This document shows positions 5,470 to 58,934 of a stretch of 64,000 nucleotides of DNA, one piece after another. The first letter of the stretch is position 1. Each line of letters opens with the position of its first letter. The stretch lies in assembly GCA_009837185.1 (NCBI GenBank), contig VXUA01000083.1:56371-120370 (forward strand), given 5' to 3'. The notes beneath the pieces were generated by a model. That model was given only the letters and a program-made list of their open reading frames with translations, was not told where the DNA came from and ran no database searches. The stretch is from Gammaproteobacteria bacterium. GTDB taxonomy: Bacteria > Pseudomonadota > Gammaproteobacteria > Pseudomonadales > Azotimanducaceae. The translations under genes were made by a program, and so were the position numbers.

Positions 5470-5535
5470 GGTGACTGTTCAAGCCCAGAGTTGTTAAGAA
5501 ATAGTGCAACGACTGTGCATCAACGAACAGCAAAC

Positions 5536-5955
5536 CTAGTCGCGAGTTGCTTCTCGAACCAAGATGGACACATTCTTAATACCCAGTTCTGACAACGCGT
5601 CCAAAACCAGTACTATGGTTGCGTGTCGCACGTCGGCATCACCTCCGAGCACTACTTGAGCTTCGGGATAGTTCTGAAACGTAGCGGTGATATGTTTCAT
5701 CACAGCGTCTCGAGAGAAGGTTTCTAAACGCACATCGTTGACCATAACGACACCTTCACTGGAAACTAGTATTTGAATGTTGTCATGATCTTGCGTGGCT
5801 AGTTCACCCTGTGCTTCTGGGAGTACGATCGCAAGAATGTTTTCTCGAACGGTGGTCGAAGTGACCATAAAAAAGATCAGTAACAGAAAAACAACATCAA
5901 TTAATGGCGTGATTTCAATTGATACGTCTCGTCTTTGTGGCCGGTGGAACTTCAT
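5536..5955 (-). CDS. exbD: ExbD/TolR family biopolymer transport protein
   Basis: 139 aa with a single N-terminal transmembrane helix (ITPLIDVVFLLLIFFM), typical of ExbD/TolR. It overlaps exbB by 4 nt. Confidence 0.8.
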   Translation of the reverse strand: MKFHRPQRRDVSIEITPLIDVVFLLLIFFMVTSTTVRENILAIVLPEAQGELATQDHDNIQILVSSEGVVMVNDVRLETFSRDAVMKHITATFQNYPEAQVVLGGDADVRHATIVLVLDALSELGIKNVSILVREATRD

Positions 5956-6575
5956 TGTTTAGACTCGACATCGAAACCTACAACCATTACATCAACAAGT
6001 CGGCTCGCTTGCCACTCCAAGTGTACGATCAGATGGTCCACTCGACGCAGGAAGTACCGGTAGCCAATGAGTGCCAGAATGGCTACTCCCAACCCAAAAG
6101 CTGTCGTTATCAACGCTTGCGAAATTCCACCCGATAGTTGGGACGGATCACCACCTCCTGTCGATACCAGTTCAGTAAATACTTGAATCATGCCGATGAC
6201 GGTTCCCAACAATCCAAGTAATGGAGATATGGATGCGATCGTCCCTAGTACGGTGAGAAACCGTTGTAAGTCAAATATGACCGTGTTTGCGGTCTCTTCC
6301 ATAACGTTTTTGACAGCATCTATCCCGAAGTCGGTCTTCCGCAATCCAGCCGCCAAAATTTTCCCGGAGGGTGATTGCTCAAGTTGACCAAGAAACTCGG
6401 TATCAATGTAGCCTTCTTCTTTAATTCTCGCTTCAATTTTTGGAAGTAACCAAGTCGGTGCAATTGCTGTTCTCCGCAAAACCCAAGCACGTTCAATGCA
6501 CACCATGAACGCGATTACGCTGCAGGCGAGAATTGGCACCATAAGCCACCCCTCAGCTTGAATCAAGTCAATCAC
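5952..6575 (-). CDS. exbB: MotA/TolQ/ExbB proton-channel family protein
   Basis: 207 aa with three transmembrane helices and the conserved PLLGLLGTVIGMI segment. Confidence 0.8.
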   Translation of the reverse strand: MIDLIQAEGWLMVPILACSVIAFMVCIERAWVLRRTAIAPTWLLPKIEARIKEEGYIDTEFLGQLEQSPSGKILAAGLRKTDFGIDAVKNVMEETANTVIFDLQRFLTVLGTIASISPLLGLLGTVIGMIQVFTELVSTGGGDPSQLSGGISQALITTAFGLGVAILALIGYRYFLRRVDHLIVHLEWQASRLVDVMVVGFDVESKQ

Positions 6576-16393: not shown

Positions 16394-17092
16394 ATGTCTA
16401 AACGCGTCCTATTGCTTCTTGCGATCATTGGTTCAGCACTCTTTTGGGCAGCGCTGATTTCAGAAATTTCCTTTCGGTATGTAGACATGTCAGGTTCGGG
16501 TGATAGTCTGGAAGCCGCTTTGGACATTAAAGAGGAATCAGAAGGACTCCCACCGAGTGCAACAAGAAACGGCTTTTTAGTACTGTTCGCGCTTGTTTCC
16601 CTCGCTGTTGCTTCTTCCTCCTTCCTCACCTACCAAATCGCTAAACGAAATCTGCTGACTACACCTTCTAGTAATAAAGTAACAAACCGACGGCAAACGA
16701 AGAGACAGTCTCAAGGGAGTAAAACGTCTTTCAAAACGACTCAAGAACGTACGGGTCATAAAAAGGTTTCCAAACTTCCTAAAAACAAAAACACAGCTCC
16801 TTCAAAGCAATCGGTACGAACAGGTAGAGCTCCAAATACGGTTGATCCATCTAGTTCATCCAAAGGGCCAGCGATCAGCGGAGAGCGAGTCAAGGGGCGC
16901 GTTCGTGTGTACTACACTCGCAGATCCTACGGTTTCGTGGAAGACGAGAGTAAGCAAACTATTTTCTTCCATAAATCGGCTGTTGATCAAGACATAAACG
17001 AACGCGATCTGACTAAGAAACCGAGTGTCAGCTATATCGTTACACCAAGCGATCGTGGTCCCATCGCTACTGACATCCAGTTAGAGCAGTGA
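16394..17092 (+). CDS. Membrane-anchored protein with a basic low-complexity linker and a C-terminal cold-shock-like (CSD/S1-like) domain
   Basis: Two N-terminal hydrophobic helices, a Lys/Ser/Thr/Arg-rich linker (NRRQTKRQSQGSKTSFKTTQERTGHKK...), then GRVRVYYTRRSYGFVEDESKQTIFFHKSAV, which resembles the CspA-type G-x-V-KWF-x-GYGFI/FVH pattern. Confidence 0.55.
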   Translation: MSKRVLLLLAIIGSALFWAALISEISFRYVDMSGSGDSLEAALDIKEESEGLPPSATRNGFLVLFALVSLAVASSSFLTYQIAKRNLLTTPSSNKVTNRRQTKRQSQGSKTSFKTTQERTGHKKVSKLPKNKNTAPSKQSVRTGRAPNTVDPSSSSKGPAISGERVKGRVRVYYTRRSYGFVEDESKQTIFFHKSAVDQDINERDLTKKPSVSYIVTPSDRGPIATDIQLEQ

Positions 17093-17101
17093 GAGCTCCC
17101 A

Positions 17102-18814
17102 ATTAACCTAAGGCAATTACTCACCGAATATCTCGACAAGAGTTTTACCAGTCTAGGAGTCGAGAACCCTAGTGCTCTCGTTTTTGCTACTGCCAATGAA
17201 GAATTTGGTGACTACCAGGCCAATGGTGCAATGGCGATTGCCAAAAAACTTGGTCGAAATCCTCAAAGCATCGCACAGGAAATTGTCGATCGCGAGCCAC
17301 TAGCCGATTTAAAAGCAAATTTAGATATCGGCGGGCCTGGTTTCATAAACATTCGCCTCGATGACGACTTCTTAGCAACCACTCTATCACAGTCGACGCT
17401 GTCTCAGCCTTTGGAGTGCGCAGAAACAATCGTCGTCGATTATTCTTCCCCGAACATTGCGAAGGAACTCCATGTAGGACATCTACGAAGTACTGTAATT
17501 GGTGACGCATTAGTACGTCTCTTTGAGTTCGTCGGACATAGGGTTATTCGACAAAACCATGTTGGTGATTGGGGTACGGCGTTCGGCAAACTAATCGCCT
17601 ACGTTAACTCGGATCAAGACTCTAGTAACCTTTCCATAGGTGGTATTGAAAAGCTGTATGTCGCCGCGAGTCAGGAATTTGATGCAAATCTCGACTTCGC
17701 CCAGAAGGCTCGGAATGAAGTTATCAAACTCCAACAACAAGATCCCGTTACACTCAAGACGTGGGAACATATCGTTCGTGCGTCGCTTGAAGACGTACAA
17801 CGCATTTACTCGGAACTTGACATTTCACTACAACTGTCGGATGTTCGTGGTGAAAGCTCGTATAACTCTGGATTACCTTCGGTAGTGAATGATCTTGAAA
17901 ATGCAGGCCTCATTGTGGAATCAGAAGGTGCGAAATGTGTATTCGTCAATGGTTTTCAACGCAAGGATGGCTCGCCACTTCCAATGATCGTCCAAAAATC
18001 TGACGGCGGTTACCTCTACCACACGACAGATTTAGCAGCCCTGAAGCACCGAACACAAGAGTTAGACGCTGATCGAATCATCTATCTCACAGACTCTAGG
18101 CAGATACACCACTTTCAAATTCTGTTCGCTGTTGGCAGACTTGTTGGCTACATTCCGAAAGAAGTTTCAACCGAACACCTTGTGTTTGGTTCAGTTCTGA
18201 ACAAAGACGGGGAACCATTCCGAACCCGCAGCGGCGACAATGTACTGTTGCGACAACTTATAGAAGAAGGCGTTGAACGTGCGTTGGATATCGTAAGTTC
18301 GAAGAGTGAGCATTTGACCAAAGATGAACAGCAACAAGTTGCCCGTCAAGTAGCTGTAGGTGCGATCAAGTATGCGGATTTATCGAAAAATCGCACAAAT
18401 GACTACCGATTTGATTGGGAAGTGATGCTTTCCCTTGATGGCAATACGGCTCCTTACCTTCAATACGCGCATGCGCGCATCTGTTCCATATTCACTCGTG
18501 CTAAAAAAGATGTGAGCGAGTTTCTTGAAGGAGAGATCGAGCTGCAACACCCGAGTGAGCGCTCGCTCGCGCTAAGGCTCTTAAGATTCGCTGAGACTCT
18601 GGAACAGTGTCTCGACGAACGTAAGCCTCACTATTTATGCAACTATCTTTACGAGTTAACGGTGCACTTTATGCGATTCTACGAGAACTGCCCAGTTCTT
18701 AAGGCGCAAACGCCAAAGTTGATGGATAGCAGACTTTGCCTTTGTGCTAAAACCGCGCAGGTTCTGCGGGTCGGACTGGAGAATTTAGGTATTTCGCTAC
18801 CGTTACGTATGTAA
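17102..18814 (+). CDS. argS: Arginyl-tRNA synthetase ArgS
   Basis: Motifs SSPNIAKELHVGHLRS and MSTR-like (FRTRSGD), plus the conserved N-terminal FGDYQANGAMAIAKKLG. This N-terminal domain lies upstream of the first ATG (17231), and there is no ATG, GTG or TTG between the in-frame TGA (17090-17092) and 17231. I place the start at ATT 17102, where INLRQLL aligns with E. coli MNIQALL. The exact start is uncertain. Confidence 0.85.
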   Translation: MNLRQLLTEYLDKSFTSLGVENPSALVFATANEEFGDYQANGAMAIAKKLGRNPQSIAQEIVDREPLADLKANLDIGGPGFINIRLDDDFLATTLSQSTLSQPLECAETIVVDYSSPNIAKELHVGHLRSTVIGDALVRLFEFVGHRVIRQNHVGDWGTAFGKLIAYVNSDQDSSNLSIGGIEKLYVAASQEFDANLDFAQKARNEVIKLQQQDPVTLKTWEHIVRASLEDVQRIYSELDISLQLSDVRGESSYNSGLPSVVNDLENAGLIVESEGAKCVFVNGFQRKDGSPLPMIVQKSDGGYLYHTTDLAALKHRTQELDADRIIYLTDSRQIHHFQILFAVGRLVGYIPKEVSTEHLVFGSVLNKDGEPFRTRSGDNVLLRQLIEEGVERALDIVSSKSEHLTKDEQQQVARQVAVGAIKYADLSKNRTNDYRFDWEVMLSLDGNTAPYLQYAHARICSIFTRAKKDVSEFLEGEIELQHPSERSLALRLLRFAETLEQCLDERKPHYLCNYLYELTVHFMRFYENCPVLKAQTPKLMDSRLCLCAKTAQVLRVGLENLGISLPLRM

Positions 18815-20008
18815 CGGTTTGACACTTTTTGGAACTGTATAGATCCTCAAGTCTCGCACAAATAAGCGCAAGTGTTCTAAGCCGGTTTCTTCGGCTTCTC
18901 GGCACCAAGTACGAAACTGCGCCAGCATTTCGTCCGCGTTCCCGCTTCGCTTAGCCAAAATAGCGATCAGCGATAGTCGTAACTCGTAGATACGTTTGAG
19001 TGCAGGACTTCTTTCGGTGATTTGATTGATGCGGTTCTTATCTCGTTCATGTAATACCACTTCATGTGCGTTCATTGCCTTTCTTCCGCGGCGCAGCAAC
19101 TTGCGGAAGTAACTGTCAGCACCTCGACGTTCTTGCTTAATCGTCGGATGAATGACCTGGCTTGCATAGGTCGACATTACTCGAAACCGGTCATTGATCA
19201 CGGCCCAAAGTGTATCCATATCTATCGAGGACTTTCCAGTAATCGTCGTGGCTACAGGTTGAGTGTGAACTGGTCGAGCAAGTTTGAAAAGACTGAGGAC
19301 GCGAATGTAGAACCACCCGATGTCGAACTCCCAAGGTTTCACAGCAAAGCGGGCTGAATTTGGGTAGGTGTGGTGATTGTTATGCAATTCCTCACCACAG
19401 ATAAATATTCCGATCGGGCAAATATTGCGAGAATTGTCTGGAGATTCAAAGTTGCGATAGCCGATCGCATGACCAATACCGTTTACCACTCCAGCACCCC
19501 AAAAAGGAGTCCAAATCATTTGTAAAGCCCAAACAACTACTCCAAGAATCCCGAATAGTGCGACATCGACAAGTAATAGACCAGCCACACCAAACCAGGT
19601 GAACTTTGAGTACACATTGCGTTCCACCCAATCATCGGGAGTTCCTTTACCATAGCGCTTTAACGTTTCTTCATCAATCGCGTCGCGGTAATATTCAACG
19701 CCTTGGAGAAGAATTGCACTCAAGCCGTGTATGACTGGACTATGAGGATCTTCATCCGTTTCTGTTTTTGCATGATGTTTGCGATGAACTGCAGTCCACT
19801 CCTTCGTGACCATGCCTGTAGTCATCCATAAGACAAAACGAAAGAAATGACTTACAGCGGGGTGCAAATCAAGTGACCGGTGGGCGGAATGTCGGTGTAA
19901 ATATAACGTGATTGCGATAAAAGTGACATGGGTAAAAACAAGAAAATATACCAATGCCCAAAGAGGCGAGAATCCGACAACGCCGAATGCCCAGTCAAAA
20001 TAATTCAC
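18803..20008 (-). CDS. Membrane acyl-CoA/acyl-lipid delta-9-type fatty-acid desaturase
   Basis: Three histidine boxes, HRHSAHR, HRKHHAKTE and HNNHHTYP, with N-terminal transmembrane helices. The 3' end overlaps the argS 3' end by 12 nt (convergent). Confidence 0.8.
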   Translation of the reverse strand: MNYFDWAFGVVGFSPLWALVYFLVFTHVTFIAITLYLHRHSAHRSLDLHPAVSHFFRFVLWMTTGMVTKEWTAVHRKHHAKTETDEDPHSPVIHGLSAILLQGVEYYRDAIDEETLKRYGKGTPDDWVERNVYSKFTWFGVAGLLLVDVALFGILGVVVWALQMIWTPFWGAGVVNGIGHAIGYRNFESPDNSRNICPIGIFICGEELHNNHHTYPNSARFAVKPWEFDIGWFYIRVLSLFKLARPVHTQPVATTITGKSSIDMDTLWAVINDRFRVMSTYASQVIHPTIKQERRGADSYFRKLLRRGRKAMNAHEVVLHERDKNRINQITERSPALKRIYELRLSLIAILAKRSGNADEMLAQFRTWCREAEETGLEHLRLFVRDLRIYTVPKSVKPLHT

Positions 20009-20215: not shown

Positions 20216-20572
20216 ATGAAAGAGTCTAGATACACGGTAAAAATGTCAGTTGCGGCAGCACTTAGATTTCGCGTGATGTTTCATTTTTTTCGGTTCCTAC
20301 AGATAGTCATAGCACCAGTACTGCTTTATGTCATGCTGTTTTACAAGAATACACGTGAAATTCATAAGTTCGATCTACCATCAAATTGTCTATTTACCGC
20401 TATCGATCAAACACCTTGGTGGAACATACCACCCTACGGGTTGATTCTGGTGGGCTTTCTGTTGTACGGTGTCATTGTCTGGATCTTTCATGACAGAAAT
20501 AATGAAAGCGGAATCGTAAATCTTGTGAACAAAAACATAAACAGTGATGAATCGATCGAGGTCAAAATATAA
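20216..20572 (+). CDS. Small hypothetical membrane protein (two predicted transmembrane helices)
   Basis: 118-aa ORF with two hydrophobic segments. No recognisable family. It lies just outside the left island repeat. Confidence 0.35.
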   Translation: MKESRYTVKMSVAAALRFRVMFHFFRFLQIVIAPVLLYVMLFYKNTREIHKFDLPSNCLFTAIDQTPWWNIPPYGLILVGFLLYGVIVWIFHDRNNESGIVNLVNKNINSDESIEVKI

Positions 20573-20681: not shown

Positions 20682-21356
20682 TTATTGTTGCACTAGAACC
20701 GAGAGTGTCTCCAATCCCTTTTTTACAATCACCCGCTCAATGTGATTCTGAATATCGGGAACAGCGTAAACCACAGTGAGTTCGACTACTCTTTCACCTC
20801 TTCGACGTCGCGTTTTCCAATGTGAGTATTTATACTCTTGAATTCTTGTAAAGCTTGCGTCGTCGCGGCTATGAGGCATCGGTTTGGTACACCCACTATT
20901 TATAGGACACAACCAAATGTTTGAGAAGTGAGCGTCAATCAATGATCTCGTATTCACTTCTAATATCTCATGTTCTCGGAGATGGTATTCCCTCGATGTT
21001 GTCATTCGATGAAGTCGTTCCTCACTCAACCAAAAAAACACTTTTGAATTTAGTAAAGCATACCAATCAGACGGTGTGATGTGGGACGGTAGACAACGAT
21101 ACAGTCCTGAGTCGCTCATGGCTTTTTGATCACGAATTACGGCATCATACAATCCTGGAGAACTTATAGTCGTACTTGATGGGCGATGTTCACGTTCAAG
21201 TGCTTCTCGCTTTGCTCCTCTTACGTCGTATAGGTCTAAGAGAGCCGAAGTACTACGTAAACCGTGCTTTCTAATGGAAGGCCAGGAGTGTCTCTCCGCC
21301 ATATGGTAGAGGATTGGGGAATCCTCAAGAAGTTCCTCTAGCTCTTGACTGGTCAC
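20682..21356 (-). CDS. Candidate DarT-like ADP-ribosyltransferase-fold protein (putative toxin/effector; may correspond to the family annotated DUF7002)
   Basis: N-terminal ILYHMAERHSWPSIRKHGL resembles the DarT/DUF4433 motif (YH-x-T-x-x-NL-x-SIL-x-x-GL, with the NAD-binding His). KVFFWLS resembles the DarT YVPFYF strand. C-terminal GERVVELTVVYAVPDI resembles the catalytic-Glu strand (AEFLVYEAFP). It overlaps the upstream gene by 4 nt. Motif-level similarity from memory only. Confidence 0.45.
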   Translation of the reverse strand: MTSQELEELLEDSPILYHMAERHSWPSIRKHGLRSTSALLDLYDVRGAKREALEREHRPSSTTISSPGLYDAVIRDQKAMSDSGLYRCLPSHITPSDWYALLNSKVFFWLSEERLHRMTTSREYHLREHEILEVNTRSLIDAHFSNIWLCPINSGCTKPMPHSRDDASFTRIQEYKYSHWKTRRRRGERVVELTVVYAVPDIQNHIERVIVKKGLETLSVLVQQ

Positions 21357-22987
21357 CAGGTTCTCCTGTCAATAATATTGCGCCAACCAAACCCAGTAGA
21401 CAATAGCGACACGGGTCGACCTGACACTCTCTCAATTTCTTCAACAAATCGAATGGTCTCTTCACTGAGTTGTTCAAACCGGTATGCTCTTCTATTCTCA
21501 ACCCCTAAGTAGTCTACAAACGTCAGGGCAATGTCGGTTGGTCCGTTTAACTGTATGGAATCCTTGAACTGTTCCCAATCGAATTCGGCGATACGTCGAG
21601 ACCTCTTTGTTGTAGTTGTGGTCTCAGTTGCTCTAAGCTCTTCCAAATCAATCTTACTACGTTCGTTTAGCTCTTCAATGTTTATTTCATATTTCAATGG
21701 TCCTGAAGGTCCGGCGACACGAATAGGATATGTACGACACACCATCACTATGTTTCTAACATTTGAAGGAGCGATACCAGCGTCTGAAAGGCATCCAGCA
21801 ACAGTGGTGTCTCGTGAGGTAACATACGGATATTGACCATGATGTAGACTCAACGTGGTACCCTGTGTTCCTTCTAACAAAATTTTTTTGTTCCTAACGA
21901 ATGCTTCGGCTAGCACCTCCCGGGCACTTCCAATATAGGGTTTCAACGCGTTGATATCTCGTGCTAATGCGCGTATAGTGTGGTTTTCATATCCAGATCT
22001 CCCTGTCACTTTGTGTGCAGTAGCCACTCCGACACCTTGCGCAGTAGAACCGATGTTTGAAAAGTTCTCTTCTTCGTACTTGATGTCCTCTTCTTGTATA
22101 GTCATGGCTTGGTGATCGATTGTAAGACGGTCGACGGTCACCTTGTGCTGTGCGATCTCTTGGAGCAGTTTGGTCGGATTTATAACCATGCCTGGACCTA
22201 GGAGCAATTTCGCCTCCGGAGCGCGTTGAGTACCCGATGGTAAGTGAAAGTATTTTTCTGGCGTGGGTTCAGCGTATACTTGGTGGCCTGCGTTCGGTCC
22301 GCCAGTTCGAATTAATAGGTTGTATTCAGGAGAAAGATATCCGACTATGTTTCCCTTTCCTTCACTGCCGTATTGTCCACCCACCAGCACGTCCACGATG
22401 TTTGTGTTAGACCGAGGGTATAGATTTAGAAGCGCTGTCGCTCGGATGAGTACATCCTCTTTACTACATCTGTCTGTAGGTACGACCGTATCGGCAATAG
22501 TTGCTAGTTGTTCGACTTTACGTTCAGTTTGGTTCCGAATTGCATCTACATAGTTAGTATTCGTGTCAGAAGTACGATCGCGTTCGTGATAACGTTCTTC
22601 CAAAACATTTGAAGCCGCTGTCAAATGAATATGATGGACACAATTCCCGTACGCACTACGAATAGCTTCTACTTGACCGGAGTTTCTTACACAGTCCACT
22701 ACAAACAACCCACTGGGTACCACGGAATTACTTGTCGCGAAGTCAATTTCACGTTGTATGTGATGAGCTAACCATTGACCTCCATCCCTTCTGTCTAGAC
22801 GATCACCAGCGCGTTGAAGAGCTAATCTATTAGACTGAATACGTGGACTACGACTTTTAATGAAGTCTTTAGTTTTTAAAACTGTTGCACCATATTGGCT
22901 TTCCAATTCCTTAGAAAGGATGGACTTCCCAGAACATATGGGACCAGAAATGAGAACTATACGAAGGGCGTCATCTCGGTGGTTCAA
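21353..22987 (-). CDS. Fusion protein: N-terminal P-loop nucleotide-kinase-like domain plus C-terminal short (archaeal/PurZ-like) adenylosuccinate-synthetase-family domain
   Basis: Residues 1-190 carry Walker A LISGPICSGKS and a Walker-B-like FVVDCVR. Residues about 195-544 align with PurA landmarks. GGQYGSEGKGN corresponds to GDEGKGK, with the catalytic Asp replaced by Ser. GGPNAGH corresponds to GGHNAGH and IGSTAQGVG to IGTTGRGIG. LEGTQGTTLSLHHGQYPYVTSR corresponds to [22 protein letters not shown], and TTTTKRSRR to TTGRRRR. Confidence 0.75.
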   Translation of the reverse strand: MNHRDDALRIVLISGPICSGKSILSKELESQYGATVLKTKDFIKSRSPRIQSNRLALQRAGDRLDRRDGGQWLAHHIQREIDFATSNSVVPSGLFVVDCVRNSGQVEAIRSAYGNCVHHIHLTAASNVLEERYHERDRTSDTNTNYVDAIRNQTERKVEQLATIADTVVPTDRCSKEDVLIRATALLNLYPRSNTNIVDVLVGGQYGSEGKGNIVGYLSPEYNLLIRTGGPNAGHQVYAEPTPEKYFHLPSGTQRAPEAKLLLGPGMVINPTKLLQEIAQHKVTVDRLTIDHQAMTIQEEDIKYEEENFSNIGSTAQGVGVATAHKVTGRSGYENHTIRALARDINALKPYIGSAREVLAEAFVRNKKILLEGTQGTTLSLHHGQYPYVTSRDTTVAGCLSDAGIAPSNVRNIVMVCRTYPIRVAGPSGPLKYEINIEELNERSKIDLEELRATETTTTTKRSRRIAEFDWEQFKDSIQLNGPTDIALTFVDYLGVENRRAYRFEQLSEETIRFVEEIERVSGRPVSLLSTGFGWRNIIDRRTW

Positions 22988-24325
22988 TCAAAACAGCTCC
23001 ACTTTGGGCTTCGAAGGTGGAGAGTCGTACACGTTTACAGTCAGTCCCGCTCTAATAAGAGTGTCGTCCAATATTTCCTCAATTACTTCCCACTTTCCCT
23101 GTGCGCTACCCGTACCAATTCTCGGCATGTGGACACTTGCACCGTTTGTCAATGCAATCTCAGATAATGTGTCTAAACAGCATTCCAATGCAGCGTAGCG
23201 AATTCTGGGAAACATTGACTTTCCATATCCTTCTTGCGCGATTAAGCTCGCTATCGTGGTTTCTTCGTCTACCTTGGTTAGGATTACTTGACCCAACCGT
23301 TTGTCACGAGGAATAGCTCGAATCGCTAGCGAGAAATCACTCTCAGCATCAGGATACATTGATGCCATTTGTTTCGCAACACCTCCTCCCCATCGTCCTG
23401 CTTGATCGTTAACGAGTTGGCAGAGAATCCTCGGAGCATCTCCTCTTGGAGTCAGAACGTTGCCATGAAAATACTCGACTGATGCTAAAGAACTCGTAGT
23501 CGGTTGGAATCCAACAAGTGTAGCAACACGAGGATAGGTTCTTCCGGGATATGCTGGAATTCCAACGCACTCAATAAGACTCCTCGTACCTACAACCCAG
23601 CTTTCTTCGGCTCGATTAGTGTAACCAATGGCCGTGCATTGGGTTACGACACTCTCGTCGGGTACAGGTCGGTTTGATAAGTGGACAGCGGGGGCATTTC
23701 GAGACGCTACGAAATAGTCTATGCGGTAACTCCTTGATGTATCGCTATCACCTCTAGGAGACGCAAAGAACACTATGGTAGGCTGGGCAGAAACCTTTAC
23801 TAGTCGAATGAAAAAGGCCTCCACAGATACGTCGTAGGCACAACATTGTTGCATGAGATCTTCAATTGGTGCAATTTGGGTATTTGGTGTCAAACTTCCG
23901 ATGGGGAGAACAAATTCTGCGGCAGCTAAATTACAAAGCAACTCGAGCTGCCAGGTATCGTCGGAATCTCTGTCGCCGCTGCGATTACGGGTTCGGCAAT
24001 GCCAATCCGAAAACAACAAATGTGCAACTTCGTGTGCAATAGAAAATCGAACCCTAGCTCTAACTTGGTGGGGGTTAAATTCAATGATCGGTTGTGCCTC
24101 ACTCCCAATTAACCTTGCATCTGAAATACTAGAATTTGCTCTGATTTTTGCGTTTAGCATTTCCGCGATAAAGGTCGGATTGAAGGGAGGACCTTCCCAG
24201 CCTGTTTCTTGTGCTTTCAGAACCAAATCTTGTGATCTCTCCTTAATCTTGTGTATTGGATCAGCATTGCCAGCGAATGCGAGAACCGATTCGTTCGTCC
24301 AGTTTATATTGGAATCTTTATCCAT
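22988..24325 (-). CDS. Fusion protein: N-terminal ImmA/IrrE-type (COG2856/M78) zinc metalloprotease, an unassigned middle region, and a C-terminal TARG1/DarG-like macrodomain
   Basis: HEXXH within FSIAHEVAHLLFSD in an ImmA-like N-terminal context. The C-terminal sequence ILCQLVNDQAGRWGGGVAKQMASMY...VHMPRIGTGSAQGKWEVIEEIL...VNVYD parallels TARG1 ([23 protein letters not shown]...[25 protein letters not shown]...ITVYT). The stop abuts the next gene's start (22988/22987). Confidence 0.75.
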   Translation of the reverse strand: MDKDSNINWTNESVLAFAGNADPIHKIKERSQDLVLKAQETGWEGPPFNPTFIAEMLNAKIRANSSISDARLIGSEAQPIIEFNPHQVRARVRFSIAHEVAHLLFSDWHCRTRNRSGDRDSDDTWQLELLCNLAAAEFVLPIGSLTPNTQIAPIEDLMQQCCAYDVSVEAFFIRLVKVSAQPTIVFFASPRGDSDTSRSYRIDYFVASRNAPAVHLSNRPVPDESVVTQCTAIGYTNRAEESWVVGTRSLIECVGIPAYPGRTYPRVATLVGFQPTTSSLASVEYFHGNVLTPRGDAPRILCQLVNDQAGRWGGGVAKQMASMYPDAESDFSLAIRAIPRDKRLGQVILTKVDEETTIASLIAQEGYGKSMFPRIRYAALECCLDTLSEIALTNGASVHMPRIGTGSAQGKWEVIEEILDDTLIRAGLTVNVYDSPPSKPKVELF

Positions 24326-24447
24326 AAATTAACGTCTAATTCTAAAATGCACGTCCTACCTTTCATGATTCGACCAGTCTAGAGTCGTTTGGTCAGAACA
24401 ACTTTTGGAACTGACATGTGACAACTCCAGTAGTGAGCAGTTTCGGG

Positions 24448-27400
24448 CTAATCTTTTTCAACCGTAACGATGCCTATTGCGACTTTATCTATAGCCTGCT
24501 TCATCGACACCGATAAATTCTCTCGTATGAACTTACTCAGCCGTCTCTGATTCCAATCTTCATGTTTACTGACAATATCAAGTGCACTCTCTTCAGCTTG
24601 TATTACTAACTTAACAAGATCTCGATGTCGAGAATTTTCAGTGTCAAAGATCGGAATTGGTACTTTCTTCCAAAATTGAGCATGAAAGTGACGATCAGTT
24701 TCCCGTGTAGCAGAAAATCGATCCTTCAACGACTCCGCATTCAATATCCCCACTAAATATTGAGCCTCCTCTTCGCTAGAAGCATCGAAATAGAAACAAG
24801 ACTCATCTACTAACAGATTGTTCGGAACTCGCGCGGCTCGCAGAATCTTACCGCCTTCGTTGTAGACAACACGAGAACCTTCATTCTTTGACCAAAATTG
24901 CGAAGTAACTTTGTTATAGTGGTTCAGATTCTCGATCAATGTTCTCGGCGTGCCGGCACCTTTGTTGCTCGGACTATCTTCCCATCTTGAACACGCGTTT
25001 CGCCAAAAAGGCACTTGCATTGCGCTCTCATTGTTCACCAAAGTAAACTGCTCAGAGTCCAAAGGTATGATGACCTTTGAGCAAACTGGTCTCACTGAAT
25101 AAGGAAAGAGGTCATAAGAGCGAACAACTGAGTGAATCCATCCTTCAGGTACTTCGAATTCTATCGGTGGATAGTTTTTCCAATGACTCTGTTTTGAAGA
25201 AACCGTCCAACCTCGCGCAGTTCCGTTGTGGTTCAGTCGTAGCGTTGAAGGATTAACGAGTACTAATACATGGGGTCGAAAACATGCACCCTGACGAAAG
25301 ACTGATTTCGCGGTTTTTTCAGAAAAATACTCTGATACGTCTGTGTCATATTGTTGTACGGATTGAGGTACCCGAACAACTTGATCTTGAACAATGTACC
25401 ACGGATCGTTGGGTTTGATTCTCGCCTTTTCAGTACTCATTCGCAGACTTTCATTCTTCTTTCCAATACCAATATACCACACACATGAAGCAGCGGTCGT
25501 AAAAGGTGGCTTTCTAGTCATTAATTCAAGTGAAGAAACGAGTGAATAGTCGTCGCGGAGCCGTTCGCGAAATTTCGCCCAAGTACCGGCACTCAAGGAG
25601 GCAGCATTCAAAACCCACCCAGCTCGGCTAGATTCGTTTGATAAATACATTTGTGAGCACTGTAGGACAAAAGTGCCTGCAACGTCAAAACTTGAAGCAC
25701 GTCTCCCACCGACCCAGAGTTTTAGTCGTTCCGCCAGATCCTTAAAAGTTGTTTTTCGATGTGGATTCTGGACAGTGTTTAATGTGATCCAAGGTGGGTT
25801 TGCGAGTATTCGATTGACTTTACGTTCCGCCAATAGTATCGGTGATATCCAGTTGTTGACATGGTACGCCCAAATACCATTTCCATCGAAATGACAAATA
25901 TCTTTTAACTCGCCAAAACTCTGTTCCAGTAGTTCGGAGTCGACCAAAGACAAATCCACAAACAAATCTGATGGAAATTTCTTCTGAGCGTTCGCTAAAT
26001 CGGTGAACCGTTTCATATCGCGAGCAAAATCCGCACGAGTAACGAACGAGCGAGGTAGGGTGAAAGATCGACCACTCTTTGGGGATCGAAACGTAAAGCT
26101 CTCTTGGCCAGGACGCACTCTCATGAAATCTAGTTCTTGCATTCCCTGACCCCATTCAGCTAAGAGCGAGTCACCCTGCCAAACGTTCAATGCTGAATCC
26201 CCTAGTGTGGGTGGCGCGGGCAGACTTCGTAGTAACGTAGTCTGGGCAAATTCCACTGCCACAGGATGTATATCGATTCCGAAGACTAATCGAGCCACGA
26301 CATCTGCTTGTTCTTCACGCGTCAACTCCATCTCTCTAAGTTTTGATACTTCAACGATTCGCCGAACCGCGTGGTACAGAAATGTCCCTGAACCACAGGT
26401 AGGATCTAGTACTCCCCAAGGCCGTACAATTTCCGATTTCTTCGTACGTCCACAACGCAAAGAGGCTTGAACCGCTTGCCGACACCAATCCTCGTCGAGC
26501 ACCTCTTCCGCAAGCATTTCTGCCAACCAATCGGGAGTGTAATATTCCCCATATATCTTTCGTTGGTCTTTCGGCACAATCTCTTGATACAACACCTGTA
26601 AGATATCGCCTTTTCTTTTACGCCAATCGAACATGTCCGTTTTATCCTGTACAGTCAGCAGCCAAGAATGTCCTTCTTGCACCTGACAAATCCAGTTGAT
26701 GAATCCCTCCGTTTGTAGACGCTCGCGTTCGTGCGAATCATGTGCATCTGGATCTACAAGAGCATTTCGTACAGCACGAGCAAAAGACACTAGCGCACAA
26801 TGACGTACAAACATAGTTTGTGCTTCTGATTCGTTACCATAGTCCATACCTGAAGCACGTATTGCATCCCACCAAAGATTAAACTGAATTTGGGCACCGC
26901 GCAGTTCTCTAGCTTGCTCCCAAATAGTCTGTAGTTGAGTCGCGTCATTAGCATACAGAATGTGAGGATTGAGCGGCGCTAACGGTTTACTTCCGTCTGA
27001 GCCTAATAAACGTAAGAACTCAACAATCGAACTTGGATCATTTCTAACATCCAATCGGACGGGTTCTGGCGAAAGTGGTTCCATTGCTCCAGGAGCATCT
27101 TGCCATTTCCACACCAACCATTGCTGGCCATCGGTAAGCACCACCGTCCACTCAAGTCTCTGCGCACTTTCAAGTTGTAGGTAACTAGCCTCCAACTGAC
27201 GAATACTTACTACGTAGCGTCGTACTTGTTCGAATTGAGTACCACCTGTTTGAAGTTGCGACTTCACGATCTTTCCAGTCGGTTTGCATTCAATCAATGT
27301 CCGATGCCCATGTAAATAGATGTCTACCGGGCCATCCCCCGTTTCCCATTGTTGCTCTGGTGAGAGTTTTAGTTCCTCGCAGAGATTGACTAGTGCTGTC

Positions 27401-27510
27401 TCCAACGATGCTTCTTTCGCATGTTTCTTACTCACCACGCTCAACAAGTCAACGAGCTTTTCTGAAATTTCTAATTGCAATTTATGCTGTCGAGTGTTTA
27501 AACAGTACAT
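24448..27510 (-). CDS. Type IIG/IIL-like (MmeI-like architecture) fused restriction endonuclease / N6-adenine DNA methyltransferase / target-recognition protein
   Basis: 1020 aa. N-terminal PD-(D/E)xK-like motif VDIYLHGHRTLIECKP. Gamma-class methyltransferase motifs in the order X, I, IV: YGEYYTPDWLAEML, VLDPTCGSGTFLYHAV and ILANPPWITL. The C-terminal ~400 aa would serve as the specificity domain. No separate S, R or BREX genes are nearby. Confidence 0.65.
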   Translation of the reverse strand: MYCLNTRQHKLQLEISEKLVDLLSVVSKKHAKEASLETALVNLCEELKLSPEQQWETGDGPVDIYLHGHRTLIECKPTGKIVKSQLQTGGTQFEQVRRYVVSIRQLEASYLQLESAQRLEWTVVLTDGQQWLVWKWQDAPGAMEPLSPEPVRLDVRNDPSSIVEFLRLLGSDGSKPLAPLNPHILYANDATQLQTIWEQARELRGAQIQFNLWWDAIRASGMDYGNESEAQTMFVRHCALVSFARAVRNALVDPDAHDSHERERLQTEGFINWICQVQEGHSWLLTVQDKTDMFDWRKRKGDILQVLYQEIVPKDQRKIYGEYYTPDWLAEMLAEEVLDEDWCRQAVQASLRCGRTKKSEIVRPWGVLDPTCGSGTFLYHAVRRIVEVSKLREMELTREEQADVVARLVFGIDIHPVAVEFAQTTLLRSLPAPPTLGDSALNVWQGDSLLAEWGQGMQELDFMRVRPGQESFTFRSPKSGRSFTLPRSFVTRADFARDMKRFTDLANAQKKFPSDLFVDLSLVDSELLEQSFGELKDICHFDGNGIWAYHVNNWISPILLAERKVNRILANPPWITLNTVQNPHRKTTFKDLAERLKLWVGGRRASSFDVAGTFVLQCSQMYLSNESSRAGWVLNAASLSAGTWAKFRERLRDDYSLVSSLELMTRKPPFTTAASCVWYIGIGKKNESLRMSTEKARIKPNDPWYIVQDQVVRVPQSVQQYDTDVSEYFSEKTAKSVFRQGACFRPHVLVLVNPSTLRLNHNGTARGWTVSSKQSHWKNYPPIEFEVPEGWIHSVVRSYDLFPYSVRPVCSKVIIPLDSEQFTLVNNESAMQVPFWRNACSRWEDSPSNKGAGTPRTLIENLNHYNKVTSQFWSKNEGSRVVYNEGGKILRAARVPNNLLVDESCFYFDASSEEEAQYLVGILNAESLKDRFSATRETDRHFHAQFWKKVPIPIFDTENSRHRDLVKLVIQAEESALDIVSKHEDWNQRRLSKFIRENLSVSMKQAIDKVAIGIVTVEKD
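27500..27510 (+). repeat. Right copy of the exact 11-bp direct repeat (AAACAGTACAT); overlaps the start codon of the methyltransferase gene
   Basis: Identical to 20587-20597. AACAGTAC recurs 6 nt further on, at 27516-27523. Confidence 0.4.
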
Positions 27511-56042: not shown

Positions 56043-58934
56043 GTGGGAGAATTGAACGAAGCAGGAACTAATCGAGTCATCAAACGCGACGGTAGTGTCG
56101 TAGCATTTGACGAAGCAAAAATTCACAATGCTATTTCAAAGGCTTTTGTCGAAGTCGAAGGACCGGCTTCGTCAAGTTCACAAAAAATACGAGACCAAAT
56201 ACACGAACTTGCCGAAAGTGTAACTTCTCGGATTCATCGAGGTAATCCCGAAAGGGCTGCCGTCGATATAGAAGATATTCAAGATCAGGTTGAACTGGCC
56301 CTCATGAGGGCTGGTCTCCAACGGATAGCGCGCGCGTACGTAATTTATCGAGAGGAACGAGCCCAGGCACGGAAGCAAGAGCAGGTAGACTCTTTTGAGC
56401 TCACCGATACGACTATCAATTACCTCCGTTCTGACGGTGTTGAAGTGCCTTTGGAACAAAAGTCTTGGTCTATCGTACTGGACCAAGTTTGTAGTGATTT
56501 GGAAGACGTAGACTCCGAACGACTGTTCTCGCAAACTCTGAGTGACGCTTTCAACGGGATCACTGAAGAGGAAGTGCTGCAATCGTTGACTCTGGCAGCG
56601 AAAACACTTATCGAAAACGAACCTAACTATGGATACGTGGCGGCGCGACTGCTCATGCTACGTCTCCGCAGAGAGGCTACTGCCTTCTTATTCCCAGAGC
56701 TCGGTGAACAATCGATTATGTCTCTACCGGCAGACATGTCGAAACTCTATAAAGAAACATTTTCGGTCTATATTGACAAAGCCGTAGAGCTTGGTTTCTT
56801 ATCCCCAGAACTCGCACAATTCGACCTCGTGAAGCTGGGCGACCATCTGGTTGCTGAACGCGACAAGCAATTTTCCTATTTAGGCATTCAAAATCTGTAC
56901 GACCGCTACTTCCTTCACTCCGATGGTGTCCGATTTGAATTACCGCAGATCTTCTTCATGCGGATTGCTATGGGATTAACAATCAATGAAACCAATCGAG
57001 AAACGAGGGCGATTGAGTTTTACAACCAATTGTCGTCGTTCGACTTTATGAGTTCGACACCTACCCTGTTTAACTCTGGTACAGTGCGTCCTCAATTGTC
57101 GTCGTGCTACATATCCACAGTACCCGATGATCTACACGGTATCTTTTCTTCGATGCGCGATAACGCGTTGCTCAGCAAGTGGGCCGGTGGTCTGGGGAAC
57201 GATTGGACCCGAGTACGGGCAATGGGATCTTACATTCAAGGTACTAATGGTAAATCGCAAGGAGTCGTACCGTTTCTCAAGATCGTTAACGACACTGCTG
57301 TTGCGGTCAATCAAGGTGGCAAGAGAAAAGGAGCAGTGTGTTCTTATTTAGAAACGTGGCACATGGATATTGAGGAATTCCTCGATCTGAGAAAAAACAC
57401 TGGTGACGATCGACGCCGAACGCATGACATGAACACCGCAAATTGGATTCCTGACCTCTTTATGGAACGCGTCATGCAAAAGGATCAATGGACACTCTTT
57501 TCACCTTCGGACGTTCCTGAATTACACGATCTTTGCGGGAATGATTTCCGTAGTGCATACGAAGCGGCGGAGGCAAAAACACGTAGTGGTGAAATTACCA
57601 ATTTCCGCGTCGTGAATGCGGAAACGCTTTGGCGCAAGATGCTGGAATCGCTGTACGAAACAGGTCATCCATGGATGACTTTCAAAGACCCGTGTAATGT
57701 ACGATCACCACAACAACATGTTGGCGTCGTGCACTCTTCCAATTTGTGCACCGAAATTACTCTAAACACATCCGACAACGAAATTGCCGTCTGTAATCTG
57801 GGTTCGATAAACCTATCAAACCACGTCACAGAGAACGGAGAAATTGATCACGATAAATTAAGATCAACCGTACGTACCGCTATTCGCATGTTGGACAACG
57901 TAATTGACATTAATTACTATGCGGTTAGAGCGGCGCGAGACTCAAACATAAGACATCGACCAATTGGGCTAGGACTCATGGGCTTTCAGGATGCGTTGTA
58001 TAAGAAACGCGTTCCTTATGGTAGTCTCTCTGCGATACAGTTTGCTGACGAAAGTATGGAAGCAGTCTCTTACTACGCGATAGAAGCATCATCCGATCTT
58101 GTCGTTGAGCGGGGTGTATATTCGACGTATCAAGGTTCGCTGTGGAGTCGAGGAATCCTACCGATCGATTCACTCAAGGTGCTAGCGGAACAAAGGAGTT
58201 CGGAAGAGTTCGCGACCTTTGACTTTAATACAACCTTGGACTGGGATGAATTACGCGAGAAAGTGAAACAACAGGGCATGCGCAATTCCAATGTCATGGC
58301 AATCGCTCCTACAGCAACGATCGCAAATATCGTTGGCATCACCCAGTCTATTGAACCAGCGTATCAAAATCTCTACTCAAAACAGAACATCTCCGGAGAT
58401 TTTGTCGTGTTGAACCCCTATCTGATCGAAGACTTGAAGAAACTAGGGGTATGGGATCAGTGGATGGCTGTCGACTTGAAAGCGAAAAACGGTAGTGTTC
58501 AAGAAATGGAGCGAGTACCCGCAAACTTACAGGAGCTTTATAAGACAGCATTTGAAATTGAACCCCATTGGATCATTGCCGCAGCAGCGCGCCGACAAAA
58601 ATGGATCGACCAATCACAATCTCTCAACCTTTACATGGCCGAAGCCAGCGGTCGCGTACTAGACCAAATGTATCGTGAAGCATGGAAGAGCGGTCTAAAG
58701 ACGACCTACTATCTCAGGTCACTTGGAGCAACGGATTCTGAGAAATCCACAATTGAAGAAGATCACGCGCTAGCGGCAGTACCACGGCATCAATTACAAG
58801 CCGAGAGTACTCCGACGCCAACGGAAGCACCAACAAGTAAAGCACATGCGCCAGAAGAGTTTGCTTTAGGGACGGCTGCTCCCGTTCCGGATGCGTGCGA
58901 CATCGATGATCCGGATTGCGAGGCATGCCAGTAA
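56043..58934 (+). CDS. nrdA: Class Ia ribonucleotide reductase alpha subunit NrdA (Pseudomonas-like long form)
   Basis: ATP-cone VIKRDGSVVAFDEAKI, catalytic NLCTEI and the C-terminal redox pair CEAC. GTG start after an AAGGAG Shine-Dalgarno sequence. Confidence 0.9.
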   Translation: MGELNEAGTNRVIKRDGSVVAFDEAKIHNAISKAFVEVEGPASSSSQKIRDQIHELAESVTSRIHRGNPERAAVDIEDIQDQVELALMRAGLQRIARAYVIYREERAQARKQEQVDSFELTDTTINYLRSDGVEVPLEQKSWSIVLDQVCSDLEDVDSERLFSQTLSDAFNGITEEEVLQSLTLAAKTLIENEPNYGYVAARLLMLRLRREATAFLFPELGEQSIMSLPADMSKLYKETFSVYIDKAVELGFLSPELAQFDLVKLGDHLVAERDKQFSYLGIQNLYDRYFLHSDGVRFELPQIFFMRIAMGLTINETNRETRAIEFYNQLSSFDFMSSTPTLFNSGTVRPQLSSCYISTVPDDLHGIFSSMRDNALLSKWAGGLGNDWTRVRAMGSYIQGTNGKSQGVVPFLKIVNDTAVAVNQGGKRKGAVCSYLETWHMDIEEFLDLRKNTGDDRRRTHDMNTANWIPDLFMERVMQKDQWTLFSPSDVPELHDLCGNDFRSAYEAAEAKTRSGEITNFRVVNAETLWRKMLESLYETGHPWMTFKDPCNVRSPQQHVGVVHSSNLCTEITLNTSDNEIAVCNLGSINLSNHVTENGEIDHDKLRSTVRTAIRMLDNVIDINYYAVRAARDSNIRHRPIGLGLMGFQDALYKKRVPYGSLSAIQFADESMEAVSYYAIEASSDLVVERGVYSTYQGSLWSRGILPIDSLKVLAEQRSSEEFATFDFNTTLDWDELREKVKQQGMRNSNVMAIAPTATIANIVGITQSIEPAYQNLYSKQNISGDFVVLNPYLIEDLKKLGVWDQWMAVDLKAKNGSVQEMERVPANLQELYKTAFEIEPHWIIAAAARRQKWIDQSQSLNLYMAEASGRVLDQMYREAWKSGLKTTYYLRSLGATDSEKSTIEEDHALAAVPRHQLQAESTPTPTEAPTSKAHAPEEFALGTAAPVPDACDIDDPDCEACQ

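Follow-up and report, generated by a model that had tools for sequence, protein, structure and literature searches.

Within a 64,000-nucleotide (nt) stretch of Gammaproteobacteria bacterium DNA (contig VXUA01000083.1, forward-strand positions 56,371 to 120,370; hereafter the window), three adjacent minus-strand genes encode an M78-type metalloprotease fused to a macrodomain (gene 1), a P-loop kinase fused to an adenylosuccinate synthetase (AdSS)-like enzyme (gene 2) and a protein of the Pfam family DUF7002 (gene 3). A sequence-only reading of the window had proposed that they form an undescribed toxin or defence system related to DarTG. Here we show that the three genes make up a real, conserved and horizontally mobile cassette with intact catalytic motifs in all three proteins. 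The stable core of this cassette is gene 2 together with gene 3, and gene 1 is an exchangeable accessory. The three open reading frames (ORFs) were confirmed in the window, beginning with ATG (gene 1), TTG (gene 2) and GTG (gene 3), and three further contigs of this organism, on which genes had been called independently, yielded identical products of 445, 544 and 224 amino acids (aa) in the same context. The genes and their junctions, in window coordinates, are as follows.

22988-24325 (-): gene 1, 445 aa, CapP/IrrE-type M78 metalloprotease joined to a SCO6735/Bt_1257-type macrodomain (ORF with Pfam, PADLOC and PDB matches)
21353-22987 (-): gene 2, 544 aa, P-loop kinase joined to a short Ser-type (PurZ-like) AdSS (ORF with Pfam, NCBIfam, PDB and PHROG matches)
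20682-21356 (-): gene 3, 224 aa, DUF7002 with a predicted, remotely DarT-like ADP-ribosyltransferase (ART) fold (Pfam, AlphaFold2 (AF2) and Foldseek)
22985-22990 (-): abutting junction of gene 1 and gene 2, TGA directly followed by TTG (read from the sequence)
21353-21356 (-): 4-nt overlap GTGA of the gene 2 stop and the gene 3 start, indicating translational coupling (read from the sequence)

Gene 1 ends in TTT TGA and is followed directly by TTG AAC, the start of gene 2. Gene 2 in turn ends in TGG TGA, with the GTG start of gene 3 lying inside it and an AGGAGA Shine–Dalgarno sequence 8 nt upstream. The three coupled genes, the abutment and the overlap are thus just as the sequence-only reading had described them. 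Both junctions are kept among related loci: the overlap of gene 2 and gene 3 is present in 37 of 37 (34 GTGA, two ATGA and one TTGA), and in 31 of 32 the distance separating genes 1 and 2 falls within −4 to +2 nt. The junctions of the cassette are therefore coupled far more tightly than expected by chance.

A scan of one genome per species across 185,579 species yielded 61 loci, in which recurring genes were identified by tblastn and ORF clustering. Gene 3 recurred in 48 loci, gene 2 in 40 and gene 1 in 35, whereas the next commonest neighbour was present in 9. All three genes stand in the order of the window in 34 of the 61 loci, and the trio first seen in a single sequence therefore occurs together elsewhere. 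The hosts belong to several phyla and include Alphaproteobacteria of several orders, Gammaproteobacteria, Deltaproteobacteria and Binatia, among others; the cassette is also carried on rhizobial, Agrobacterium, Ralstonia and Burkholderia plasmids. Sequence identity across these distant hosts is about 60% for gene 3 and about 70% for the AdSS domain of gene 2, which indicates horizontal spread. Gene 3 had no match in 50,697 phage genomes and was found on 2 of 2.9 million IMG/VR contigs.

Gene 3 belongs to Pfam PF22531 (DUF7002; 3.7e-70) and is publicly annotated as 'hypothetical' or 'DUF7002 family protein'. The sequence-only reading had called it DarT-like, and its candidate catalytic residues lie at the following positions.

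21303-21305 (-): gene 3 His18
21246-21254 (-): gene 3 Ser35-Thr36-Ser37
20781-20783 (-): gene 3 Glu192

No sequence link to DarT or to any other ART family was found in Pfam (E ≤ 10, over 25 members), NCBIfam, PADLOC or PHROGs, and phmmer and profile searches against PDB sequences gave no match. A first AF2 model (predicted local distance difference test (pLDDT) score, 75.9) left the most conserved loop, aa 152-175, disordered and matched only ARTs, at E ≥ 3.9e-3. A second model, for which 11 divergent DUF7002 members were added to the alignment, reached a pLDDT of 94.8 and a predicted template modelling (pTM) score of 0.90. All of its top 50 Foldseek matches in the PDB were ADP-ribosyltransferases, led by Mycobacterium tuberculosis DarT (7.8e-4, probability 1.00), Escherichia coli DarT1 (1.0e-3) and cholera toxin A1 (1.2e-3), with pertussis toxin, other DarTs and Tpt1/KptA further down; the BFVD library of viral folds returned nothing significant. 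Residues H18 (in β1), R58, D76, N153, G155, F169 and E192 (at the start of β5) are invariant in DUF7002 down to 21% identity, and S35, T36, R50, R75, R114 and R164 are nearly so. The model and the family alignment thus place a histidine in β1 and a glutamate in β5 of an ART fold, and the residue pattern follows the H / S-T / E arrangement expected in an active ART. Since this fold and layout come without a match to DarT sequences, gene 3 probably represents a new ART family of which DarT is the nearest, but remote, solved relative. The fold part of the earlier assignment therefore stands; membership of the DarT family was rejected, as no DarT sequence model recognizes the protein and the template modelling (TM) score is about 0.4.

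Gene 2 combines two domains, as had been read from its sequence, and its synthetase half can be described more specifically as carrying PurZ-type active-site signatures. Its parts are as follows.

22418-22966 (-): adenylate-kinase-type P-loop domain, aa 8-190
22922-22945 (-): Walker A motif GPICSGKS
21362-22396 (-): AdSS domain, aa 198-542
22352-22369 (-): GSEGKG
22034-22051 (-): GSTAQG
21701-21727 (-): PIRVAGPSG
21512-21526 (-): LTFVD

The kinase domain matches Pfam AAA_18/AAA_33 and, in the PDB, is closest to the archaeal AdkA-like protein 3lw7 (3.3e-4). A weak similarity links it to the anti-phage dCTP deaminase, in the kinase region of that protein (PADLOC, 5e-6; NCBIfam, 5.8e-4 and 18.8 bits against a cut-off of 400); that family unites a kinase-like with a deaminase domain, and PADLOC and NCBIfam detected no deaminase domain in gene 2, which is therefore not a member. 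The second domain matches Pfam adenylosuccinate synthetase (1.1e-57) and falls below the PurA equivalogs (PRK04293, 281.5 against a cut-off of 368; TIGR00184, 210 against 395.55). After archaeal PurA, its next-nearest PDB relative is the PurZ of phage S-2L (8e-34, 121 bits), and PHROGs assigns it to the phage PurZ family phrog_1211 (1.4e-68). Five motifs separate the enzymes.

P-loop: gene 2 family GSEGKG; PurA GDEGKG; S-2L PurZ GSTGKG
Preceding NAGH: gene 2 family GP-NAGH; PurA GT-/GH-NAGH; S-2L PurZ MP-NAGH
IMP loop: gene 2 family (G/A)ST.QGVG.A; PurA GTT..G.GPA; S-2L PurZ GSTGQGSMAA
RVG region: gene 2 family PIRVGG.SG; PurA.TRVG.GPF; S-2L PurZ PIRVGGTSGG
GTP specificity: gene 2 family LTF.D; PurA T(K/M)LD; S-2L PurZ NFCN

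In the first of these, the catalytic aspartate of PurA (Asp13 in GDEGKG) is replaced in gene 2 by serine, as in PurZ. The corresponding S23 of PurZ is specific to that enzyme and lies next to the 2-amino group of dGMP (PMC8342488); of the positions numbered in that paper, S23, N49-T53, T132 and R244 are those cited here, as the others did not map consistently onto the reconstructed PDB chain. In the signature alignment, the 38 fused homologues all carry PurZ-type motifs, as do the divergent variants described below and a stand-alone copy at locus L036. No DatZ, MazZ or DpoZ, the partners of PurZ in phage Z clusters, accompanies gene 2, whose contexts are chromosomal or plasmid.

Full-length kinase–AdSS homologues number in the hundreds. 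An exhaustive search with the AdSS domain over 1.84 billion cluster representatives returned 8348 relatives, 638 of them at E<1e-30, which make up a large unannotated metagenomic clade of kinase-fused and stand-alone enzymes. Among the nearest 149 representatives in which a P-loop was found (P0241-P0389), nearly all carry GSxGKG, mostly as GSEGKG, with three GDEGKG and three GGEGKG. Some 45 of the nearest representatives have a fused N-terminal domain, and the others are stand-alone proteins of 330-370 aa. By its sequence, gene 2 thus appears to belong to a large Ser-type clade that includes PurZ, and is a member of neither curated family, PurA or PurZ; many members of the clade may be uncharacterized PurZ-like enzymes. 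The public annotation of gene 2 is 'adenylosuccinate synthetase', and a fragment 99% identical to it is assigned in its annotation to a Gammaproteobacteria metagenome-assembled genome. One stand-alone Ser-type AdSS lies on a phage-like contig (L068, 5205-6254).

Gene 1 likewise has two parts, an ImmA/IrrE-type protease and a macrodomain of the TARG1/DarG class, both of which had been recognized from the window alone and are borne out by Pfam, PADLOC and PDB matches.

23621-24214 (-): M78/CapP-like region, aa 38-235
24020-24034 (-): HExxH motif, H98-E99-x-x-H102
23012-23491 (-): macrodomain, aa 279-438
23234-23236 (-): candidate catalytic Gln364
23105-23131 (-): phosphate-binding loop HMPRIGTGS

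Almost the entire PADLOC capP model aligns with the region of aa 38-235 (1.2e-17), which also matches Pfam Peptidase_M78 above its cut-off (24.1 bits against 22) and weakly resembles the IrrE structure 3dte (1.4e-3). Its HExxH motif at aa 98-102 is invariant in 31 homologues, and gene 1 is accordingly an M78 protein. CapP and PprI/IrrE are peptidases stimulated by single-stranded DNA (ssDNA). Repressor cleavage, which the earlier reading cited for proteases of this kind, is not evident here in its classical form because no cognate helix–turn–helix (HTH) repressor lies beside gene 1.

The C-terminal 170 aa of gene 1 are closest in the PDB to 2afc (4.8e-21), 2fg1 (Bt_1257; 6.7e-21) and 5e3b (SCO6735; 2.9e-18), with ALC1 and TARG1 as more distant matches, and this part of the protein is assigned on sequence similarity to the ALC1/TARG1/DarG class of macrodomains. 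The segment LIAQEG aligns with MIGQHG of SCO6735, such that Gln364 corresponds to SCO6735 Gln85 and is invariant in the 31 homologues. This glutamine takes the place of the lysine of TARG1 and DarG, and similarity and residue together put the domain in the SCO6735/Bt_1257 subclass. SCO6735 removes the thymidine-linked ADP-ribose made by DarT from DNA and rescues cells from DarT; it also hydrolyses protein ADP-ribose, and it depends on Gln85, not on the lysine of DarG and TARG1 (PMC9411070). The sequence-only comparison with the DarG antitoxin module thus holds for the chemistry of a close relative, but not for the family, as the NCBIfam DarG models give 13.1 bits against a cut-off of 250 and the PADLOC DarG model reaches 4e-4 on the macrodomain part only.

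That gene 1 is the exchangeable partner follows from the variants of the cassette (loci are given as L numbers). A two-gene core without gene 1, in which the kinase–AdSS gene overlaps the DUF7002 gene, occurs on plasmids and megaplasmids of rhizobia, Agrobacterium, Burkholderia and Ralstonia and also at L052, L054 and L057. Here the accessories are a YfbR-like HD 5′-deoxynucleotidase or a protein of 450-500 aa; in Ralstonia the accessory is an additional small AAA ATPase. The HD protein is closest in the PDB to Atu1052 (6e-17), and its presence points to deoxynucleoside monophosphate chemistry. We rejected it as a DatZ, since it matches Atu1052/YfbR and no DatZ entry. The conserved 450-500-aa protein has no match in Pfam, NCBIfam or PADLOC. 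Neighbours of these variants include AbiJ, RelA/SpoT, PDDEXK, UvrD with a metallophosphoesterase, VapBC, integrases and a Wadjet-type gene.

HD phosphohydrolase and 450-500-aa protein: L052, 5571-6149 and 8702-10204; L062, 7738-9860; L065, 2771-3319 and 5678-7048

Gene 3 is also found by itself. Eleven genomes hold an uninterrupted gene 3 with all invariants kept and no adjacent gene 1 macrodomain, 4 of them with a truncated gene 2 remnant, and distant DUF7002 members (30-40% identity) are solo genes. At L036 (6877-11711), the neighbours of gene 3, all on the opposite strand, are a Ser-type AdSS of 367 aa that stands alone, a 550-aa protein and a canonical PurA (444 aa, 579 bits). Separately, a 451-aa protein at L047 (7323-8678) joins a 240-aa N-terminal region to a complete DUF7002 domain. 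Divergent kinase–AdSS fusions, one of which is 746 aa long and has a further N-terminal domain, show translational coupling to different partner proteins of 210-240 aa (L079, 4273-7241; L080, 637-3503; L077, 1829-4011), in an island with ParE, PIN, Phd and RelB toxin–antitoxin genes. The partners at L077 and L079 were considered as cryptic DUF7002 proteins and rejected, with an hhalign probability of about 0.3%.

Around the cassette, flanking genes differ from locus to locus. They include tyrosine integrases (8 loci), serine recombinases, an HTH–PIN pair, VapBC, helicases and insertion sequence (IS) elements, as well as genes of defence type: type I restriction–modification (R-M), an argonaute-associated restriction endonuclease (Aga), Kiwa, PDC-S19, PDC-M03B, methyltransferases, HEPN, AbiJ and CHAT. 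Two Binatia genomes carry the whole cassette within a type I R-M operon, between the genes for HsdS and HsdR (L042, 3776-13349; L046, 3810-14420), a position known for other abortive-infection genes, such as PrrC. Nine loci are extended by a fourth gene (about 380 aa), which overlaps the gene 3 stop and encodes a Lit/U41-like zinc protease, of the abortive-infection type (PADLOC peptidase_U41, 6.9e-9; Lit, 2.5e-4). At L025, the cassette is intact except for an IS4/IS5-family transposase (5514-6356) that separates gene 1 from gene 2.

Fourth gene: L007, 8666-9832; also L004, L009, L013, L014, L035, L051 and L075

The immediate surroundings in the window are as follows.

24448-27510 (-): type IIG R-M gene, neighbour only, outside the conserved cassette (PADLOC REase_MTase_IIG, 3.7e-38)
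24339-24366 (-): weak match to a sigma-70-like promoter in front of gene 1, 9 of 12 positions (consensus match only)

The R-M gene, correctly named in the sequence-only reading, lies 122 bp from gene 1. It was rejected as a member of the system, as it adjoins the cassette in none of the 61 other loci. The R-M gene and the cassette are flanked in the window by housekeeping genes, with argS and a desaturase gene on one side and a rhodanese gene and mnmC on the other, and no marked shift in GC content was seen across them. The accessory island of the earlier description is putative; in other genomes the neighbourhoods of the cassette are rich in defence and mobile genes. Promoter-like matches are fewer in this region than in its shuffles, and the match at 24339-24366 is a lead, not evidence; a terminator scan downstream of gene 3 gave nothing convincing. 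The fatty-acid desaturase gene that adjoins the cassette (18803-20008, -) has a Pfam match to an ISL3 transposase domain besides FA_desaturase and shares 12 nt with the 3′ end of argS. A hydrophobic ORF of 118 aa (20216-20572, +) is convergent with gene 3; gene callers recognize it on each of the organism's three other contigs, and it is not conserved beside the cassette in other genomes. Further away, a 232-aa protein (16394-17092, +) has an unusual architecture of a hydrophobic N terminus, a long Ser/Lys/Thr-rich low-complexity linker and a C-terminal cold-shock domain.

Starting from the gene structure, coupling, conservation, mobility, domain folds, PurZ-type signatures and intact catalytic motifs, all shown above, we infer a scheme for substrates, toxicity, trigger and phage protection. 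We tentatively suggest that the cassette is a self-contained mobile conflict module, most likely acting against phages or in abortive infection with toxin–antitoxin-like logic; as a complete scheme, this is the account that we favour and by no means a settled one. Gene 2 and gene 3 would form its invariant core, held at a fixed stoichiometry by the overlap of stop and start. Gene 3 would transfer ADP-ribose from NAD+ to a macromolecule, most probably to single-stranded nucleic acid, the type of target that DarT modifies. Gene 2, with GTP and aspartate, would convert a guanine (deoxy)nucleoside monophosphate into N6-succino-2-aminoadenylate, and its kinase domain would feed or process the nucleotide. 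This activity could drain the G pool or generate nucleotides of the 2-aminoadenine pathway, and so stall replication. Gene 1 would silence the system, its macrodomain erasing ADP-ribose marks and possibly binding gene 3, while its CapP/IrrE-type protease would couple release to a cue of infection or DNA damage, such as ssDNA.

Several observations weigh against this scheme. On the side of gene 2, the nearest structures overall are archaeal PurA (Pyrococcus 2d7u/5k7x, 1e-51, 180 bits), the NCBIfam PurZ model NF038379 scores 213.2 bits against a cut-off of 300, and the AdSS domain shares 31-33% identity with the PurZ proteins annotated in cultured phages. The GTP-specificity aspartate is kept throughout the gene 2 family where S-2L PurZ has asparagine, which does not fit a donor of the ATP/dATP kind. 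The PurZ-type assignment is accordingly putative, and the substrate may be GMP, dGMP or IMP. As for gene 3, its fold matches are remote (TM about 0.3-0.45), and cholera and pertussis toxins score nearly as high as DarT. With a likeness to DarT that is so distant and is not seen in sequence, its target could instead be a protein or a small molecule. No conserved HTH or CapH-like fourth gene that might serve as the protease substrate was found across the 61 loci, and housekeeping genes flank the cassette at some of them. Finally, two-gene modules without a macrodomain and intact solo copies of gene 3 exist, and gene 3 may therefore be non-toxic alone and gene 1 may not be an obligatory antitoxin, which makes the sequence-only view of the macrodomain as the obligatory neutralizer of an ART toxin doubtful.

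These points bear differently on the alternatives. A less probable, but quite possible, account makes gene 2 the sole effector, which gene 3 would switch off or on by ADP-ribosylating it or another protein, as with DraT/DraG of nitrogenase; the macrodomain of gene 1 would reverse the mark once the protease/sensor domain detects infection. The strict overlap of gene 2 and gene 3 implies a stoichiometric pair, gene 3 is tolerated alone with its catalytic residues intact, gene 1 is optional or replaceable, SCO6735-type macrodomains act on protein ADP-ribose too, and the protein-targeting cholera toxin A1 matches gene 3 about as well as DarT does. The fused-kinase design moreover parallels that of the anti-phage dCTP deaminase. 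However, the interaction of gene 2 with gene 3 and the site of modification are purely hypothetical, the best structural neighbours of gene 3 are DNA-targeting DarTs, and a solo gene 3 would be without a target, yet it is under purifying selection with its invariants kept. The model of the sequence-only reading, in which gene 3 and gene 1 are a toxin–antitoxin pair of DarTG type and gene 2 is a separable purine-metabolic effector or a passenger, seems unlikely. It would account for the ART fold with DarT as top match, for a macrodomain of a subclass shown to neutralize DarT and for an antitoxin-like gene upstream, and three-gene DarTG variants such as DarHTG are known (PMC13069673). Yet gene 1 is the least conserved of the three partners, gene 2 is never found apart from gene 3 in the main clade, and the DarT and DarG sequence models do not recognize the proteins. 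A constant core of gene 2 and gene 3, a replaceable gene 1 and intact solo copies of gene 3 all weaken a strict DarT/DarG reading. Of the conflict module, the effector switch and the DarTG-type pair, the last fits the variants worst.

The exchange of the macrodomain protein for a YfbR-like 5′-deoxynucleotidase, an enzyme of small-molecule nucleotides, also suggests a different kind of product. The enzymes of the cassette might together produce a non-standard nucleotide, for instance a purine nucleotide bearing ADP-ribose or a succinyl group, to be used as an immune signal or as a toxic antimetabolite and broken down by gene 1 or the HD nucleotidase. The many invariant arginines of gene 3 would suit phosphate binding, and macrodomains can bind or hydrolyse free ADP-ribose derivatives. 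Such a pathway is distinctly unlikely, however: no signal-receiving effector is conserved in the cassette, no precedent was found and the model is purely inferential. Very improbable is a 2-aminoadenine (Z-base) DNA-modification or anti-restriction module on a mobile element, related to the phage Z cluster. It would explain the PurZ-type signatures and the PHROG match, and an HD hydrolase stands in the variants as the HD enzyme DatZ stands beside phage PurZ (PMC8342488). But gene 3 is all but missing from the phage genomes and IMG/VR contigs searched, the Z-cluster partners are not there, the HD protein is Atu1052/YfbR-like, and an ART, a macrodomain and a protease have no role in Z synthesis. 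We give almost no credence to an ordinary second purA paralogue with unrelated neighbours. Every public annotation does call gene 2 an adenylosuccinate synthetase; against this reading stand the exchange of the catalytic aspartate for serine, scores below all PurA equivalog cut-offs, the kinase fusion, the translational coupling to an ART, the sporadic mobile distribution and the canonical PurA that L036 holds beside its Ser-type enzyme.

Returning to the conflict module, a bolder form of it is conceivable, although we consider it improbable as a whole: gene 2 would be a cellular PurZ-type immune effector that, on infection, converts guanine deoxynucleotides into succino-2-aminoadenylate and thereby starves replication of dGTP and/or floods it with nucleotides of the Z pathway, working with or under a new ART family. 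The cellular Ser-type AdSS clade would then be the reservoir of phage PurZ, or the reverse, and gene 2 with gene 3 would be a novel two-enzyme defence module unrelated to DarTG. Neither PADLOC-DB v2 nor NCBIfam release 20 has a model that recognizes gene 3 or the gene 2 synthetase as a defence component, and full-text literature searches, including a 2026 domain-centric discovery paper, found no description of the cassette. In line with the sequence-only reading, these searches found no named system that corresponds to the trio, and the core of gene 2 and gene 3 could be a new kind of system. If the cassette works as proposed, it would bring together two hitherto separate features of conflict between phages and bacteria, reversible ADP-ribosylation (DarTG) and interference with nucleotide pools (the dCTP deaminase and dGTPase defences), through chemistry known so far only from phages that build 2-aminoadenine genomes. 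It would also give Pfam DUF7002 its first function, define a new ART family and bring to light a large cellular Ser-type 'PurZ-like' clade that is now mislabelled as housekeeping adenylosuccinate synthetase. Together with the variants that carry an HD nucleotidase or a Lit-like protease, the two-gene core and the three-gene form make up a natural series in which effector, regulator and sensor could be told apart.

Last, we compared the cassette with known systems. It resembles DarTG in pairing an ART-fold enzyme, whose nearest solved relatives are DarT2 and DarT1, with a macrodomain of the ALC1/TARG1/DarG class in a mobile, defence-associated context, and the closest characterized relative of that macrodomain reverses the DNA adduct of DarT. 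It differs in that gene 3 is a DUF7002 protein without a DarT sequence match, and in that the macrodomain, a member of the Gln-type SCO6735 subclass, has an M78 protease fused to it and no DarG C-terminal domain. The gene order is also reversed, with the kinase–synthetase inserted as the more constant partner and the macrodomain gene dispensable in variants. Gene 2 shares with phage PurZ a short archaeal-type AdSS scaffold with the serine of GSxGKG, P-NAGH, STxQG and PIRVGGxSG; unlike PurZ, it is borne on bacterial chromosomes or plasmids, is fused to a kinase, keeps the GTP-motif aspartate and stands without DatZ, MazZ or DpoZ. With the anti-phage dCTP deaminase it has in common an N-terminal P-loop kinase-like domain joined to an enzyme that converts DNA precursors, and both reside in defence islands, whereas the catalytic domain of gene 2 is a synthetase that ligates aspartate and its partners are an ART and a macrodomain protein. 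The N-terminal half of gene 1 is an M78 HExxH peptidase like those of CapP/CapH, ImmA/ImmR and IrrE/DdrO, but it has no adjacent HTH repressor, is fused to a macrodomain and sits inside the operon that it would regulate. The cassette thus combines ART/macrodomain conflict systems with kinase-fused nucleotide-converting effectors.

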